From: Escherichia coli
Lineage (GTDB): Bacteria > Pseudomonadota > Gammaproteobacteria > Enterobacterales > Enterobacteriaceae
Assembly: GCF_003334765.1 (NCBI RefSeq)
Contig: NZ_QOWT01000010.1
Length of the DNA: 64,000 nucleotides
Strand: one strand, 5' to 3'
Shown here in pieces: positions 2,215 to 35,647 of this stretch (positions are counted from its first letter, which is position 1; each line of letters opens with the position of its first letter). The notes under the pieces are model-generated. The model was not told the DNA's origin. It saw only the letters and a list, made by a program, of their open reading frames with translations, and ran no database searches. The translations under genes and the position numbers were made by a program.

Positions 2215-4632
<2,418 letters not shown>

Positions 4633-29288: not shown

Positions 29289-31841
29289 TCAGAACAATTC
29301 CTGTGCCTCGCCATTATCGATAATGGTCGTTCCCACCTCGTGCACTGCCTGTTGTGTCGGCTGCGTACCTTCGATGAAATACTCTTCGCGGCTGTTGCCA
29401 CCATTAGCTAACTGCCCGGTGCTGCGATCGATATTCACCGTCACAATACCCGGTGGCGGCGTCAGCGGCTGCTCCGGCACACCTTCAAGAACGGCTTTCA
29501 TATAAGCGTCCCATGCAGGCTGGGCACTCTTGGCACCGCCTTCGTAACCTGAGATCTGATCTTTAATCGCTCCGGAAGCCGTTGTATGACCGAGATTACG
29601 ACGGTGATCATCAAAGCCAATCCAGACCGAGGTCACAACGCCCGGACCGTAACCCGAGAACCACGCATCTTTCGAACTGTTAGTGGTCCCGGTTTTCCCG
29701 CCGATATCGCGACGCTGCAAATCACGACCTGCACGCCAGCCAGTACCCTGCCAGCCTGGCTCACCAAAGATATTGGTGTTCAAAGCACTCTTAATCAGGA
29801 ATGCCAGCGGAGTGTTGATGACGTGCGGTGCGTACTCCTGCGCGCCAGTCTTCGCCACTAACGCCTGATTTGCCTGCTCCAGCTGCGGCATTGGTACAGA
29901 AACATTCTGCTGCTCGCGGGAGATAGCGACATCTTCAACATCGTTATTTTCCAGCACGTTCGATTTCTGCGTATCACCGTAAATCACCGGAATATCGCAT
30001 TCCGGGCAGGCTACTTTCGGTTTCGCTTCGAAAATCACGCCGCCCTGATCGTTTTCAATTTTGCTGATAAACCACGGGTCCACCAGGAAGCCGCCGTTCG
30101 CCATGACCGCGTAGCCGCGCGCCACCTGCATTGGGGTGAAGGACGCTGAACCCAGCGCCAGCGATTCGGTGTGGACAATGTTTTGTGCCGGGAAGCCGAA
30201 GCGTTGCAGATATTCTGCAGCGTAGTCGACGCCCATCGCCCGCATTGCGCGTACCATCACCACGTTTTTCGACTGACCCAGCCCCTGACGTAAGCGAATT
30301 GGACCAGCATACTGCGGTGGTGAGTTCTTCGGCTGCCAGTCAGAACCGGCACTTGCATCCCAGCGAGAAATTGGCACATCGTTCAACATACTTGCCAGCG
30401 TCAGACCTTTATCCATCGCCGCGGTGTAGAGGAACGGTTTGATGTTGGAACCCACCTGACGCAGTGCCTGGGTGGCGCGGTTAAACTTGCTCTGATTGAA
30501 ATCAAAGCCACCGACCAGCGCCATAACGGCACCGTTTTGCGGATTGATCGACACCAGCGCCGAGTTCACTTCCGGCACTTGTGCCAGCCACCATGCATCG
30601 CCAACCTGACGAACCCAGATTTGCTGACCCGTTTGCAGAACATCGGTCACTTTACGCGGCGTCGGTCCTTGCTGAGTATCCGAACGGTAAGGACGCGCCC
30701 AGCGAACGCCTTCCATACTCAATGCGACGGTCGACCCGTCCGCCAGCATCGCCGTCGCTTGCTGAGGATTGGCGCTGGTGACTGCGGCAGGCAGCAGCGG
30801 ACCATAGGTTGGCAGCGCCTTCAGCGTATCGGTAATCTTGTTGTTATCCCACGCCGACTCGCCCACTTTCCACAGCACATTTGCCGGGCCGCGATAGCCG
30901 TGGCGCATGTCGTAGTCCAGCACGTTATTACGTACCGCCTGCTGCGCGGCCTGCTGCACTTTGCGGGTGATGGTGGTGTAAATGCGATAACCGTCTTCAT
31001 AGGCACTTTCGCCATAACGGTTATACATCTCCTGGCGCACCATTTCGCTCAGGTACGGCGCAGAGAAAGCAATCTCCGGCGCGTGATAGTTAGCGTTAAT
31101 CGCCTCAGTGCGTGTCTGATCGAACTGTTGTTGGGTGATATACCCTTCATCCAGCATCCGCGACAGCACGACGTTACGCCGCGCGACGGCACGATCCATC
31201 GAGTAGAGCGGGTTGAAGGTGGAAGGCGCTTTCGGCAGCCCGGCTATCACCGCCATTTCGTTCAGCGTCAGTTGGTCGACCGTTTTTCCGAAATAGACTT
31301 GTGCCGCAGCACCGACACCATAGGCGCGGTAACCAAGGTAAATCTTGTTCAGATAAAGCTCGAGGATCTCGTCTTTCGTCAGCAGCTGTTCAATGCGAAT
31401 CGCGAGGAAGACTTCCTTAATCTTACGCATCAGCGTGCGTTCTGGACTGAGGAAGAAGTTTCTCGCCAGCTGCTGGGTAATGGTACTTGCCCCTTGTGAC
31501 GCGTGACCGGAGAACAGCGCCACGCTTGCTGCACGGAAGATCCCCACCGGGTCAACGCCGTGATGCTCGTAGAAGCGGCTGTCTTCTGTCGCGATAAAGG
31601 CTTTCACCATCTCCGGTGGGATTTGATCCAACGTAACCGGAATACGACGTTTCTCACCGTATTGAGCAATCAGCTCGCCATCGGCGCTGTAAATCTGCAT
31701 CGGAATTTGCAGGCGAACATCTTTTAATGTCGCCACATCCGGCAGTTGTGGCTCGATGTAGCGGTATAGGCCATAAATCGAGCCTGCTCCCAGCAGAATG
31801 CAACAGACTGCAAGGATCAAAAAATACTTTACGAACTTCAC
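29289..31841 (-). CDS. mrcA: Penicillin-binding protein 1A (bifunctional transglycosylase/transpeptidase)
   Basis: ORF track gives 858 aa from ATG at 31865 (MKLNGKFPVKFVKYFL...); I chose the internal GTG at 31841 (MKFVKYFLILAVCC..., 850 aa) on recalled K-12 length; transpeptidase motifs SxxK, KTG present. The upstream ATG at 31865 is a real alternative. Confidence 0.9.
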   Translation of the reverse strand: MKFVKYFLILAVCCILLGAGSIYGLYRYIEPQLPDVATLKDVRLQIPMQIYSADGELIAQYGEKRRIPVTLDQIPPEMVKAFIATEDSRFYEHHGVDPVGIFRAASVALFSGHASQGASTITQQLARNFFLSPERTLMRKIKEVFLAIRIEQLLTKDEILELYLNKIYLGYRAYGVGAAAQVYFGKTVDQLTLNEMAVIAGLPKAPSTFNPLYSMDRAVARRNVVLSRMLDEGYITQQQFDQTRTEAINANYHAPEIAFSAPYLSEMVRQEMYNRYGESAYEDGYRIYTTITRKVQQAAQQAVRNNVLDYDMRHGYRGPANVLWKVGESAWDNNKITDTLKALPTYGPLLPAAVTSANPQQATAMLADGSTVALSMEGVRWARPYRSDTQQGPTPRKVTDVLQTGQQIWVRQVGDAWWLAQVPEVNSALVSINPQNGAVMALVGGFDFNQSKFNRATQALRQVGSNIKPFLYTAAMDKGLTLASMLNDVPISRWDASAGSDWQPKNSPPQYAGPIRLRQGLGQSKNVVMVRAMRAMGVDYAAEYLQRFGFPAQNIVHTESLALGSASFTPMQVARGYAVMANGGFLVDPWFISKIENDQGGVIFEAKPKVACPECDIPVIYGDTQKSNVLENNDVEDVAISREQQNVSVPMPQLEQANQALVAKTGAQEYAPHVINTPLAFLIKSALNTNIFGEPGWQGTGWRAGRDLQRRDIGGKTGTTNSSKDAWFSGYGPGVVTSVWIGFDDHRRNLGHTTASGAIKDQISGYEGGAKSAQPAWDAYMKAVLEGVPEQPLTPPPGIVTVNIDRSTGQLANGGNSREEYFIEGTQPTQQAVHEVGTTIIDNGEAQELF

Positions 31842-31960
31842 TGGAAATTTCCCATTTAGTTTCATTTGGGCAGTTTATAAACAAACGCGCGGTAGTATAA
31901 AGGCAAGCCAGACGCATTGATATACCCGTCAGAGTGACGGGTGATAAGGAGATCATCACA

Positions 31961-32740
31961 ATGGCATTTAAGATCTGGCAAATTGGTTTGCATTTACAAC
32001 AGCAAGAAGCGGTAGCGGTTGCGATCGTGCGGGGCGCAAAAGAATGCTTTTTGCAACGCTGGTGGCGGTTGCCGCTGGAGAACGACATTATCAAAGATGG
32101 GCGGATTGTTGATGCGCAGCAGCTGGCTAAAACGTTGTTACCGTGGAGTCGCGAACTGCCGCAGCGTCATCACATTATGTTGGCGTTTCCCGCCAGTCGC
32201 ACATTACAGCGGTCATTTCCGCGCCCGTCGATGTCCCTTGGTGAGCGGGAGCAAACGGCCTGGCTGTCAGGGACGATGGCCCGCGAGCTGGATATGGATC
32301 CGGACTCCCTGCGCTTCGATTACAGCGAAGACTCACTCAGTCCCGCCTATAACGTGACTGCCGCGCAAAGCAAAGAGCTGGCAACGCTGCTTACTCTGGC
32401 AGAAAGGTTGCGTGTTCATGTGAGCGCGATCACCCCGGATGCCAGTGCATTACAGCGATTCCTGCCTTTTTTACCTTCTCATCAGCAATGTCTGGCCTGG
32501 CGTGATAACGAACAGTGGCTGTGGGCGACGCGCTATAGCTGGGGGCGCAAACTGGCGGTGGGGATGACTAGCGCGAAGGAGCTGGCGGCAGCGTTATCCG
32601 TTGATCCCGAAAGCGTCGCGATATGTGGCGAAGGCGGATTTGATCCCTGGGAGGCCGTTTCTGTTCGTCAGCCGCCGCTACCGCCGCCAGGTGGAGACTT
32701 TGCCATCGCGCTGGGGCTGGCGCTTGGGAAGGCGTACTGA
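31961..32740 (+). CDS. hofM: HofM, PilM-like type IV pilus/DNA-uptake assembly protein
   Basis: 259 aa from ATG at 31961 (MAFKIWQIGLHLQQQEAVAVAIVRG); divergent from mrcA. Confidence 0.85.
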   Translation: MAFKIWQIGLHLQQQEAVAVAIVRGAKECFLQRWWRLPLENDIIKDGRIVDAQQLAKTLLPWSRELPQRHHIMLAFPASRTLQRSFPRPSMSLGEREQTAWLSGTMARELDMDPDSLRFDYSEDSLSPAYNVTAAQSKELATLLTLAERLRVHVSAITPDASALQRFLPFLPSHQQCLAWRDNEQWLWATRYSWGRKLAVGMTSAKELAAALSVDPESVAICGEGGFDPWEAVSVRQPPLPPPGGDFAIALGLALGKAY

Positions 32741-33279
32741 TGAACCCGCCAATTAATTTTTTGCCCTGGCGACAGCAACGCCGGACCGCTTTTCTGCGTT
32801 TCTGGTTGCTGATGTTCGTTGCGCCTCTGCTGCTGGCCGTCGGGATAACGCTAATACTGCGTCTGACAGGCAGCGCCGAAGCGCGCATAGACGCAGTTTT
32901 GCTTCAGGCGGAACAACAACTCGCCCGCAGCTTACAGATAACGAAGCCACGTTTGCTGGAGCAACAGCAGTTACGCGAACAGCGTTCGCAACGGCAGCGC
33001 CAGCGACAATTTACCCGCGACTGGCAATCTGCGCTGGAAGCACTGGCGGCGCTTTTACCCGAGCACGCCTGGCTGACAACGATAAGCTGGCAGCAGGGAA
33101 CGCTGGAGATCAAGGGGCTGACAACAAGCATTACCGCGTTAAACGCACTAGAAACGTCACTCCGCCAGGATGCATCTTTTCATCTCAATCAGCGGGGAGC
33201 CACGCAGCAGGATGCGCAGGGACGCTGGCAATTTGAGTATCAGTTAACAAGGAAGGTTAGCGATGAACATGTTCTTTGA
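32740..33279 (+). CDS. hofN: HofN, PilN-like protein
   Basis: 179-aa ORF MNPPINFLPWRQQRRTAFLRFWLLMFVAPLLLAV; start overlaps hofM stop. Confidence 0.85.
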   Translation: MNPPINFLPWRQQRRTAFLRFWLLMFVAPLLLAVGITLILRLTGSAEARIDAVLLQAEQQLARSLQITKPRLLEQQQLREQRSQRQRQRQFTRDWQSALEALAALLPEHAWLTTISWQQGTLEIKGLTTSITALNALETSLRQDASFHLNQRGATQQDAQGRWQFEYQLTRKVSDEHVL

Positions 33280-33703
33280 CTGGTGGTTCGCCACATCACC
33301 CCGCCTCCGCCAGCTTTGCTGGGCATTCTGGTTGCTGATGTTAGTTACGCTCATTTTTCTGTCATCGACACACCATGAAGAGCGCGACGCATTAATTCGA
33401 CTACGGGCAAGTCATCACCAGCAGTGGGCCGCACTGTATCGCCTGGTAGACACCACTCCCTTCAGCGAGGAAAAAACGCTGCCCTTTTCGCCACTGGATT
33501 TTCAGTTATCCGGCGCGCAACTGGTTTCCTGGCATCCATCCGCGCAGGGAGGCGAGTTGGCGTTGAAAACGCTGTGGGAAGCAGTGCCGTCGGCATTTAC
33601 ACGGCTGGCAGAGCGCAACGTCAGCGTGAGCCGTTTTTCGTTAAGCGTGGAAGGTGATGATCTTTTGTTCACGCTACAACTGGAGACGCCGCATGAGGGT
33701 TAA
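33263..33703 (+). CDS. hofO: HofO, PilO-like protein
   Basis: 146-aa ORF MNMFFDWWFATSPRLRQLCWAFWLLMLVTLIFL; 17-nt overlap with hofN. Confidence 0.82.
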   Translation: MNMFFDWWFATSPRLRQLCWAFWLLMLVTLIFLSSTHHEERDALIRLRASHHQQWAALYRLVDTTPFSEEKTLPFSPLDFQLSGAQLVSWHPSAQGGELALKTLWEAVPSAFTRLAERNVSVSRFSLSVEGDDLLFTLQLETPHEG

Positions 33704-34097
33704 ACGCTGGTTGTTGGCAGGTATTGCATTGTGCCTTTTAACCGGTATGCGTGACCCTTTTAAACCGCCGGAAGATCTATGCCGGATTAGCGAACTTAGC
33801 CAGTGGCGCTATCAGGGGATGGTAGGGCGAGGCGAGCGCATCATCGGTGTAATAAAAGACGGGCAAAAGAAATGGCGACGGGTGCAGCAAAACGATGTGC
33901 TGGAAAACGGCTGGACAATTTTACAGCTGACGCCAGACGTACTAACGCTGGGTACCGGGACAAACTGCGAACCGCCACAATGGTTGTGGCAACGGCAAGG
34001 AGATACAAATGAAGCAATGGATAGCCGCACTACTGTTGATGCTGATACCCGGCGTACAGGCGGCAAAGCCGCAAAAAGTGACGCTGATGGTGGATGA
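33693..34097 (+). CDS. hofP: HofP, PilP-like lipoprotein
   Basis: 134 aa from internal ATG (MRVKRWLLAGIALCLLTGMRDPF); ORF track starts 13 codons earlier. Confidence 0.78.
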   Translation: MRVKRWLLAGIALCLLTGMRDPFKPPEDLCRISELSQWRYQGMVGRGERIIGVIKDGQKKWRRVQQNDVLENGWTILQLTPDVLTLGTGTNCEPPQWLWQRQGDTNEAMDSRTTVDADTRRTGGKAAKSDADGG

Positions 34098-35247
34098 CGT
34101 TCCGGTAGCTCAGGTGTTGCAGGCGCTGGCTGAACAGGAGAAGTTGAACCTGGTCGTGTCGCCAGACGTCAGCGGTACGGTGTCGTTACATCTAACAGAT
34201 GTTCCCTGGAAGCAGGCACTACAAACTGTAGTGAAAAGCGCCGGACTGATAACGCGGCAGGAAGGCAACATTCTCTCAGTGCATTCCATTGCCTGGCAGA
34301 ATAACAATATCGCCCGCCAGGAGGCGGAGCAGGCGCGGGCGCAGGCAAATCTGCCGCTGGAAAATCGCAGTATAACCCTGCAATACGCCGACGCGGGAGA
34401 ACTGGCGAAAGCGGGGGAGAAGCTACTGAGTGCCAAAGGGAGTATGACCGTCGATAAACGCACCAATCGCCTTTTGCTACGAGATAACAAAACGGCGTTA
34501 AGCGCGCTTGAACAGTGGGTAGCGCAAATGGATCTGCCGGTCGGGCAGGTTGAGCTGTCGGCGCATATTGTCACCATTAATGAAAAAAGTTTGCGTGAGT
34601 TAGGCGTGAAATGGACGCTGGCCGATGCGCAACACGCTGGTGGCGTTGGGCAAGTCACCACGCTTGGTAGCGACCTCTCCGTAGCGACGGCGACAACGCA
34701 TGTCGGTTTTAACATTGGGCGCATCAACGGACGCTTGCTGGATCTTGAGCTTTCCGCGCTCGAACAAAAACAGCAGCTGGATATTATCGCCAGTCCGCGT
34801 CTGCTGGCCTCACATCTTCAGCCTGCCAGCATTAAACAGGGGAGCGAAATTCCATATCAGGTTTCCAGCGGGGAAAGTGGCGCGACGTCGGTGGAATTTA
34901 AAGAGGCCGTCCTGGGGATGGAGGTCACGCCCACGGTGTTACAAAAAGGTCGCATCCGGCTGAAATTACACATCAGCCAGAACGTTCCGGGGCAGGTGCT
35001 ACAGCAGGCCGATGGCGAAGTGCTGGCGATTGATAAGCAGGAGATCGAAACGCAGGTCGAGGTCAAAAGCGGAGAAACGTTGGCGCTGGGCGGCATTTTT
35101 ACCCGTAAAAATAAATCGGGTCAGGATAGCGTACCGTTGCTTGGCGACATTCCCTGGTTCGGGCAATTATTTCGTCATGACGGAAAAGAAGATGAACGAC
35201 GCGAGTTAGTGGTGTTTATCACGCCACGACTGGTTTCCAGTGAGTAA
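34009..35247 (+). CDS. hofQ: HofQ, secretin (PilQ/ComE-like outer membrane channel)
   Basis: 412-aa ORF MKQWIAALLLMLIPGVQAAKPQKVTLMVDDVPVAQVLQAL; secretin C-terminal domain; begins inside the hofP reading frame. Confidence 0.9.
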   Translation: MKQWIAALLLMLIPGVQAAKPQKVTLMVDDVPVAQVLQALAEQEKLNLVVSPDVSGTVSLHLTDVPWKQALQTVVKSAGLITRQEGNILSVHSIAWQNNNIARQEAEQARAQANLPLENRSITLQYADAGELAKAGEKLLSAKGSMTVDKRTNRLLLRDNKTALSALEQWVAQMDLPVGQVELSAHIVTINEKSLRELGVKWTLADAQHAGGVGQVTTLGSDLSVATATTHVGFNIGRINGRLLDLELSALEQKQQLDIIASPRLLASHLQPASIKQGSEIPYQVSSGESGATSVEFKEAVLGMEVTPTVLQKGRIRLKLHISQNVPGQVLQQADGEVLAIDKQEIETQVEVKSGETLALGGIFTRKNKSGQDSVPLLGDIPWFGQLFRHDGKEDERRELVVFITPRLVSSE

Positions 35248-35647
35248 ACAGCCGTAAAAGCGGTAATGTTTTTACGCTGAACGTGTTTCATCTATTTGAC
35301 GCGCGCAGGTATTTAGCATACAAGGAGTACCGATTTGAGAGTTGGTGCTCTTCGCTGCCTGCGTTCCATGATGATGATTTATCATTCAGGCGGCATTTTG
35401 CTGTCTTTTTTACGCTAATCTTACCCGGTGATTTATCGCCAGAGCGGTGGTAGCAAGGCAGCGCGCTTGCAGCGACCAGATATGCAGAGGGATGGGTGAT
35501 TTATTCAGTTGCCAAACCCGCTGGAGTATTGAGATAATTTTCAGTCTGACTCTCGCAATATCTTATGAGGTTTCAGTTCATGTCCTGCGGCGCTCTCTGA
35601 GCGAAGCGGGTTTATCATTAACGAATAGTCTTAGTAGTACCGAAAAA

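Follow-up and report, generated by a model that had tools for sequence, protein, structure and literature searches.

In the window, a 64,000-nt stretch of Escherichia coli contig NZ_QOWT01000010.1 (assembly GCF_003334765.1), the last two genes of the hofMNOPQ operon, hofP and hofQ, share 89 nt in different reading frames. At the level of the open reading frames (ORFs) this overlap is real. Comparison with relatives further suggests that the HofP tail encoded by the shared DNA is translated and is under selection for its amino acid composition, a reading to which we assign a probability of roughly 80%. The evidence lies at the third positions of hofQ codons, where T is depleted throughout the overlap; because this bias is silent in hofQ, is phased with hofP, is bounded by the hofP stop codon and sorts according to the residue which it would introduce into HofP, we surmise that the tail is translated. 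The initial annotation had considered that the hofP frame might not be translated at all; the codon bias in that frame presents a clear signature of translation.

The hofQ frame is +1 relative to that of hofP, with hofP codons counted from 34008 and hofQ codons from 34009. The shared nucleotides (Table 1) are read in the hofQ frame as a signal peptide, MKQWIAALLLMLIPGVQA, followed by AKPQKVTLMVD; the -1 frame gives the tail of HofP, EAMDSRTTVDADTRRTGGKAAKSDADGG. The hofP stop codon sits in a conserved VDD/VDE motif at the start of the mature N-terminal domain of HofQ. The hofQ ORF contains no start codon before 34009, and by inspection the N-terminus which this start provides (MK, a hydrophobic core, and VQA followed by AK) is a canonical Sec signal peptide, a pattern common to the 77 orthologues. 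In a published survey 715 of 715 co-directional overlaps greater than 60 bp were judged to be artefacts (PMC2478687), and hofQ might likewise start downstream of hofP, or hofP might be mis-annotated. For this gene pair such an artefact is scarcely credible. The start codon is preceded at a distance of 6 nt by AAGGAG; wherever the genes are complete (77 loci), both the start and a Shine-Dalgarno (SD) sequence are conserved, and an SD-like GGAG/AGGA motif is found 5′ of hofQ in all of the relatives displayed. Initiation at Met11 or Met27 would give no signal peptide, and a secretin must be exported. The position of the hofP stop cannot be mis-called, and the HofP orthologues are of the same length. 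Initiation of hofQ outside hofP, which the initial annotation had also raised, is without a plausible downstream start.

A scan of one genome per species gave 80 loci from the Enterobacteriaceae, with HofQ proteins 67-98% identical. Indels in hofP made a gapless alignment of the junction unusable 5′ of hofQ, and codon alignments and alignment-free codon indexing were used instead. The overlap is exactly 89 nt in 37 of the 79 loci in which both genes were called, one of them the MG1655 control. This comparison across the family, which had been suggested by the initial annotation, reveals that 65 of the 77 species with a complete hofQ keep an overlap of 77-140 nt (62 at 77-98 nt and three at 122-140 nt) with the same frame relation. 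Eight of the 77 have shorter overlaps of 38-62 nt, and two, a Leclercia metagenome-assembled genome (MAG) and a Proteobacteria MAG, overlap by only 4 nt (ATGA) and in another frame; the relation between the two frames is the same in all but two loci. Overlaps of 134, 77 and 74 nt are found in distant relatives (HofP identity 25-28%, mrcA-hof-aroK context), counting from the hofQ ATG which possesses an SD and a signal peptide. The codon equivalent to D29 is GAT in 71 of 77 species, as against a null usage of 0.66, and among the 29 of the first 32 hofQ codons that were compared, none is more constrained at its synonymous site than this one (34093-34095). The Asp codon which follows, by contrast, switches freely between GAT and GAC. 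Six species carry GAC at D29, and in three of these the hofP frame extends to 122-140 nt.

Within hofQ codons 2-28, T occupies 6% of third positions compared with 18-20% elsewhere in the gene (observed/expected ratio 0.35); in E. coli K-12 this stretch is free of T-ending codons and includes the rare codons ATA, CTA and CCC. When four-codon bins were aligned on the hofP stop, the ratio was 0.20-0.42 inside the overlap and 1.16-1.36 directly after it. Every one of the 65 long-overlap species lies below expectation inside the overlap (mean of 1.09 T-ending codons versus 4.45 expected), while a stretch of equal length downstream splits the same species 36 to 29. Seven control segments from the same genomes show no depletion, their ratios ranging from 0.79 to 1.6: 0.93 for the HofP signal peptide, 0.79-0.87 for the N-terminal and membrane segments of hofN and hofO, and 0.95-1.6 for the N-termini of hofM, aroK, aroB and mrcA. 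A general codon effect of N-termini, signal peptides or membrane segments was rejected on the strength of these controls.

The depletion varies with the residue which a T would create in HofP. Third-position T that would make Cys is entirely absent (0 observed, 83.2 expected), and T making Tyr (5 versus 40.7), Trp (1 versus 8.1), Leu (2 versus 9.7) or Phe (7 versus 14.6) is scarce; depletion of T making Ser is mild (56 versus 83.6). Downstream of the overlap all residue classes are near 1, with 86 cases of Cys-making T against 98 expected. Synonymous recoding of HofQ in 26 representative species predicted 32.1 +/- 4.7 Cys residues, where none is observed, and also exposed an excess of Lys, Gly and Ala in the HofP tail. 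In the short-overlap species Cys-making T is back after their own hofP stop (4 versus 4.6 expected). The statement in the initial annotation that the overlap constrains both proteins is correct only in part: the amino acids of HofQ are not measurably constrained, and the cost falls upon the synonymous third positions of hofQ. The second and third codon positions of the HofP tail are the first and second positions of HofQ codons.

One could argue that hofP simply lost its stop codon and that its frame happened to remain open, giving a neutral tail under no selection. The tail is variable in sequence and predicted to be disordered, short-overlap lineages exist, and for the Escherichia group the expected probability of a frame open to VDD is 0.87, all of which would suit incidental read-through. 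Neutrality predicts normal wobble usage, however, whereas T is depleted 3-5-fold in every four-codon bin with a step at the hofP stop; this, the complete lack of Cys-making T (0 against 83), the agreement of all 65 species and the deficit of hofP-frame stops (12 against 48.5) render the explanation quite improbable. The codon bias might otherwise result from selection upon the hofQ mRNA (initiation, rare codons in the signal peptide, or RNA stability) and not upon the HofP tail. It is true that codons 2-10 are A-rich (33% A at third positions) and have the lowest synonymous diversity (0.28), and that the E. coli rare codons named above occur in the overlap. Yet the depletion is uniform as far as codon 28, and its boundary coincides with the hofP stop, neither with the close of the initiation region nor with that of the signal peptide; its degree follows the residue that would be made in the hofP frame (ratios of 0.00 for Cys, 0.12 for Tyr and 0.67 for Ser); and none is seen in the HofP signal peptide, the hofN and hofO membrane segments or the four other N-termini. 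The RNA of the junction, moreover, folds no better than shuffled sequences (z = 0.15). We regard selection on the mRNA as a very improbable source of the bias. RNA structure at the junction (33970-34130) was also considered as a coupling device and rejected, given the same z value and the unpaired state of the SD and ATG.

Selection for an open hofP frame is evident as well. Each hofP codon in the overlap begins with the wobble base of a hofQ codon and is completed by positions 1 and 2 of the hofQ codon after it, and a stop requires a wobble T followed by AA, AG or GA. The codons which can follow in this way are those for Lys, Asn, Ser (AGY), Arg (AGR), Asp and Glu, few of which occur in signal peptides. 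There are two such places before VDD in E. coli, at A19 and V28, and because there are only two, an open frame of 89 nt is unsurprising in E. coli alone (expected 0.87). Across the family, the hofP frame is open to VDD in 66 of 77 species, where context-matched codon usage predicts 38.9. At the level of groups it is open in 22.8 of 29 roughly independent groups against 13.6 expected (z = 3.7), and 12 hofP-frame stops are found before VDD in place of 48.5. A and G, which give Lys and Gly respectively, each occur at about twice the expected frequency at the stop-prone sites. Avoidance of stops as the sole signal was rejected, as T-ending hofQ codons in the overlap are depleted both at stop-making sites (0.25 of expectation) and elsewhere, where no stop is possible (0.36).

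A metagenome contig (NODE_178, 25 kb, found in two samples; locus L086) carries hofP and hofQ as a single ORF of 511 amino acid residues (P0116, L086:3001-4536), in which the HofP core is followed by a linker of approximately 35 residues and the secretin domains; the context is mrcA-hofMNO-...-aroK-aroB. No separate hofQ start or internal signal peptide was found in any frame of this fusion, which looks like a natural union of a PilP-like protein with a secretin and not a 1-nt assembly error. It fits an arrangement in which the ends of HofP and HofQ adjoin in the assembled machine. The fusion illustrates that the two proteins can be joined, and with hofQ at +1 to hofP a programmed +1 frameshift yielding a HofP-HofQ fusion protein was considered also for E. 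coli. This is barely tenable: the sequence beyond the SD offers no shift-prone site with an in-frame stop or rare codon, the junction lacks RNA structure, and selection both for a hofP stop in one place (71 of 77 species have GAT) and against Cys in the entire tail implies that ribosomes normally keep to the hofP frame as far as its stop.

Three other loci deserve comment. In Citrobacter koseri NCTC10786 (L040, approximately 3460-3620) hofQ is apparently frameshifted near residue 75, its N-terminal part (VVDDVPVVQVLQ...) lying in another frame than what follows; hofM and hofN of this locus gave partial matches. A record titled Chryseobacterium sp. 18061 (L065) contains a hof locus of typical enterobacterial form, its HofQ sharing 72% identity with the E. 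coli protein, and the assembly is probably mislabelled or contaminated; a HofP 70% identical and labelled Acinetobacter baumannii (P0058) is a similar case.

Several observations weigh against selection on a translated tail, or limit what such selection can mean. The ten species with short overlaps (4-62 nt) and the L086 fusion indicate that the full tail is not essential, and the truncated lineages argue against its being necessary. The amino acid sequence of the tail is not conserved beyond what hofQ imposes, and synonymous diversity within the overlap is only about 20% below that of the rest of the gene (0.39 versus 0.49); the constraint is for these reasons one on composition, and maybe purely one of avoiding harm. 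The apparent tail motif NEAMDS, for example, is hofQ ATG-AAG-CAA-TGG-ATA read one base earlier. The species are related by phylogeny, so the nominal statistics overstate their independence, an effect which the use of 26-29 groups reduces but does not remove. Codons 2-10 are also rich in A, as would be expected of an initiation region, so that some of the bias in these codons may reflect selection at the level of the mRNA. Finally, laboratory cultures hardly express the operon (PMC1635313).

What the tail might do is a separate question. Its manufacture and export to the periplasm are suggested by the absence of Cys, since in that compartment any Cys additional to the invariant pair C30/C92 would do harm. 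The tail may serve as a flexible spacer next to the N-terminal domain of HofQ and not as a sequence-specific motif. In our analysis the tail is best viewed as a compositionally policed, flexible extension beside a domain which, by analogy with PilP and GspC, would dock on the N0 ring of the secretin. That it possesses a positive function, and is not merely tolerated, is a tentative proposal which we consider somewhat doubtful. The 3-4-fold avoidance of stops, the preference for Lys and Gly and the fixed GAT at the stop argue for some benefit, and the replacement of the overlap by an in-frame fusion in L086 may be counted in support of a useful tail. One possible role is that of a flexible, slightly basic spacer which places the PilP-like domain on the HofQ ring or touches incoming DNA; alternatively, translation of hofP through the hofQ start region may set the ratio of HofP to HofQ.

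HofP consists of a signal peptide, a β-domain resembling PilP and the GspC homology region (HR) at approximately residues 30-100, and the 29-residue tail encoded inside hofQ. It matches Pfam HofP (PF10748; E = 3.7e-80); no match to Pfam PilP and no NCBIfam family were found. In an AlphaFold2 model built on 73 family members, the β-domain (residues 30-100) has a predicted local distance difference test (pLDDT) score of 89-95. The tail is predicted to be disordered, with pLDDT below 50 at residues 109-128 and means of 41-49 for blocks of ten residues from 111 to the end. The top Foldseek matches to the core among solved structures are the PilP proteins of Myxococcus, Neisseria and Pseudomonas (3jc8_Pa, E = 6e-4; 2ivw; 2lc4; 2y4x/2y4y) and the GspC HR domain (3oss_C; target-normalised template modelling score 0.73, root-mean-square deviation 2.7 Å); probabilities are 0.98-1.00 except for the PilP chain 2y4y_A (0.85). 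Residues R20, P22, F23, C30, G42 and C92 are invariant, while C14 of the E. coli protein is not conserved. Only three Cys occur after the second conserved Cys, among 2,708 residues of the 73 family members. None of these 73 sequences possesses a lipobox ([LVI][ASTVI][GAS]C) within its first 28 residues, and HofP is consequently PilP-like in fold but not a lipoprotein. In Escherichia albertii NBRC 107761 (L004:3185-3586) hofP contains an in-frame stop at codon 34 (RIS*LTQW) with the remainder and the tail intact, and is probably a recent pseudogene in that strain.

These data can be assembled into the following scheme. The hofMNOPQ operon is the E. coli version of the type IVa pilus/competence alignment-plus-secretin module (PilMNOPQ, ComABCDE), transcribed from a weak CRP-S/Sxy-dependent promoter inside mrcA, with each start at or inside the end of the preceding gene (1, 17 and 11 nt), the usual layout for translational coupling. 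The ribosome-binding site (RBS), start codon and entire signal-peptide coding region of hofQ lie inside the 3′-end of hofP which, having no stop of its own after the PilP-like domain, continues in the -1 frame until the TGA formed by the GAT-GAN of VDD/VDE. Read out of frame, the hydrophobic codons of a signal peptide (Leu, Ala, Val, Ile, Gly, Pro) yield a tail that is small and polar, with many Gly, Ala, Arg, Lys, Asp and Thr residues. A wobble T is needed for any stop, Cys, Tyr, Trp or Phe, and selection appears to have purged T from those wobbles. The outcome is probably an unaltered HofQ sequence and a HofP whose frame ends at a fixed place, after a disordered tail of about 29 residues that is harmless and free of Cys.

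The initial annotation described the products as PilMNOPQ-like, and for HofQ, HofN and the core of HofP this stands. HofQ passes both the NCBIfam HofQ model (NF007851; 855.2 bits, cut-off 598) and the PilQ model (TIGR02515; 449.4 bits, cut-off 284.35). HofN matches Pfam PilN (PF05137) at residues 99-166 (E = 3.1e-9), and its translation contains a hydrophobic stretch at residues 20-41. The likeness must be qualified for HofP, which lacks the lipobox of PilP, and for HofM, which is sub-threshold against TIGR01175 pilM (16.1 bits, cut-off 133) and shows only weak Pfam matches to PilM_2 (E = 0.047) and T2SS-L (E = 0.0024). HofM orthologues in distant relatives have a precomputed match to PilM_2 (PF11104), and HofM is probably a divergent, short PilM-like protein. 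For HofO no PilO profile was matched, its sole Pfam match being the HofO EspM-like domain (PF25319; E = 2.2e-25); its position in the operon and its N-terminal membrane segment fit PilO. Judged by these profile matches, strict membership of the PilMNOPQ families applies to HofQ and HofN only, and "PilMNOPQ-like" is a fair account of how the system works.

The PilMNOPQ systems of Pseudomonas aeruginosa, Neisseria and Myxococcus share the gene order and five-part logic of hofMNOPQ, but the Hof proteins have diverged further and are much shorter, and HofO and HofP form their own Pfam families. PilP is a lipoprotein, unlike HofP (0 of 73 with a lipobox); HofM, at 259 residues, fails the PilM cut-off; and HofQ, at 412 residues, is far shorter than P. 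aeruginosa PilQ. HofQ is not known to possess the AMIN domains of the latter protein. The β-domain of PilP and GspC binds the N0 domain of the secretin, and the GspC-GspD pair of type II secretion follows the same logic of connecting an inner-membrane platform to a secretin as HofP and HofQ. That machine and its cargo are different, however, and GspC has additional PDZ or coiled-coil domains where HofP has only its disordered tail. The ComABCDE proteins of Haemophilus influenzae are described as orthologous and, like the Hof proteins, are controlled through CRP-S/Sxy and take part in DNA uptake across the outer membrane; the promoter in Enterobacteriaceae has two predicted CRP-S sites, whereas that of Pasteurellaceae has one (PMC1635313).

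The stretch from 31866 to 35300 is 100% identical to MG1655-type chromosomes, and the hofMNOPQ stretch was found in all 5,426 of the 5,426 complete E. coli genomes searched. The coordinates in the ORF list equal, to the base, those given by RefSeq and the Prokaryotic Genome Annotation Pipeline for an MG1655 derivative. The gene identities, overlaps and synteny reported in the initial annotation agree with the ORF list, the sequence and RefSeq, including the divergence of the operon from mrcA and its position upstream of aroK-aroB-damX-dam-rpe-gph-trpS, which is the order annotated by RefSeq downstream of hofQ. In operon order the genes overlap by 1 nt (TGATG), 17 nt, 11 nt and 89 nt. In most relatives hofM and hofN overlap by 1 or 4 nt; 17 nt is the commonest overlap between hofN and hofO; and the 11-nt overlap of hofO and hofP is nearly universal, distant relatives included. 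These short overlaps presumably couple translation.

Table 1. Coordinates of genes and other features of the hofMNOPQ region in the window.
Feature	Position	Strand	Details
mrcA	29289-31841	-	Divergent, upstream of hofM
Published yrfD (hofM) promoter fragment	31685-31810	+	Electrophoretic mobility shift assay primers of PMC1635313 map to 31685-31704 and 31789-31810
hofM-leader hairpin	31924-31942	+	Perfect 8-bp, ACCCGTCA-GAG-TGACGGGT, just 5′ of RBS
hofM Shine-Dalgarno AAGGAG	31946-31951	+	Inside GATAAGGAGATC box
hofM	31961-32740	+	259 residues; ORF list, sequence and RefSeq
hofN	32740-33279	+	179 residues; start shares one base with hofM stop
hofO	33263-33703	+	146 residues; PilO position; 17 nt shared with hofN
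hofP	33693-34097	+	134 residues; 11 nt shared with hofO
hofQ Shine-Dalgarno AAGGAG	33997-34002	+	6 nt before ATG; encodes end of HofP core (QRQGD) in hofP frame
hofQ	34009-35247	+	412 residues; PilQ-family outer-membrane secretin
89-nt dual-coding stretch	34009-34097	+	hofQ codons 1-29 and first two bases of codon 30
hofP stop TGA	34095-34097	+	Last base of hofQ D29 (GAT) and first two bases of D30 (GAC)

The gene now called hofM was studied as yrfD, the orthologue of comA according to Cameron and Redfield (PMC1635313). Its promoter contains two predicted CRP-S sites; CRP binds the promoter fragment weakly but specifically in bandshift experiments, and Sxy induces yrfD 16-fold in a crp-dependent manner (PMC1635313). 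We find that the published fragment lies wholly inside the coding sequence of mrcA, on the opposite strand, so that the divergent transcription overlaps the first 30-155 nt of mrcA (approximately its first 50 codons); the same location implies a hofM leader of more than 150 nt. A scan of the window with the CRP-S consensus was uninformative (289 matches versus 341 expected by chance), and within the published fragment only matches with three mismatches occur, at 31696-31711 and 31777-31792. Scans for sigma-70 promoters and terminators between 31600 and 35700 gave counts at the level of chance. Among these chance-level hits are weak terminator-like hairpins with T runs between hofQ and aroK (35251-35264 and 35388-35406) and a promoter-like site before aroK (35509-35538). 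The hairpin in the hofM leader, ATATA(C/G)CCGT..., shows partial conservation and carries paired changes in both Citrobacter and Enterobacter, and the GATAAGGAGATC box at the hofM SD hardly varies from genus to genus (loci L002-L081; window region 31919-31951). The box and hairpin could be a regulatory element of the leader or a promoter-proximal motif.

With respect to function, hofQ is required for Sxy-dependent DNA uptake, as reported by Sinha and Redfield (PMC3330819), and that paper also summarises Finkel's finding that growth on DNA depends on homologues of competence genes. Uptake of DNA by E. coli is seen only with artificial expression of sxy, and natural transformation was undetected (PMC3330819). 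The control by CRP and Sxy and the role in DNA uptake or nutrition put forward in the initial annotation agree with this literature (PMC1635313, PMC3330819). The operon, its annotation and its regulation are thus already known, and only the selection signature of the overlap adds to them.

In the survey of 338 genomes no co-directional overlap greater than 60 bp was considered real, the longest genuine one being holD/rimI (32-56 bp), and 60 bp was proposed as a limit for flagging annotation errors (PMC2478687). Like hofP/hofQ, holD/rimI is an enterobacterial same-strand overlap which extends across genera and in which the C-terminus of the upstream protein and the N-terminus of the downstream protein share DNA. 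At 89 nt in E. coli and 74-140 nt in relatives, the hofP/hofQ overlap exceeds both that of holD/rimI and the limit, and it is validated here by a codon-bias signature and not by sequence conservation in the two proteins. The pair yrfA/hofQ is absent from the supplementary lists of that survey (PMC2478687), and although the hofP/hofQ overlap is present in databases, we found no discussion of it in the literature searched. It is a documented exception to the 60-bp rule, in E. coli K-12 itself, and we do not claim that it is the only one. What is added here is comparative evidence for true dual coding, together with a simple account of why it is tolerated.

The overlap offers a clean natural example of two proteins sharing about 90 nt, in which all of the freedom of the second frame resides in the wobble bases of the first. 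A signal peptide read out of frame is intrinsically polar and disordered, and the removal of T suffices against stops, Cys and aromatic residues. The case provides a counter-example to a rule on same-strand overlaps of more than 60 bp which was meant for the clean-up of annotation. The zero-Cys signature, furthermore, is an indirect sign that the product of a nearly silent operon is made and exported. Should the tail prove useful, or the overlap set the ratio of HofP to HofQ, this would be a conserved and functional same-strand overlap of approximately 90 nt in a core operon of the enterobacteria.

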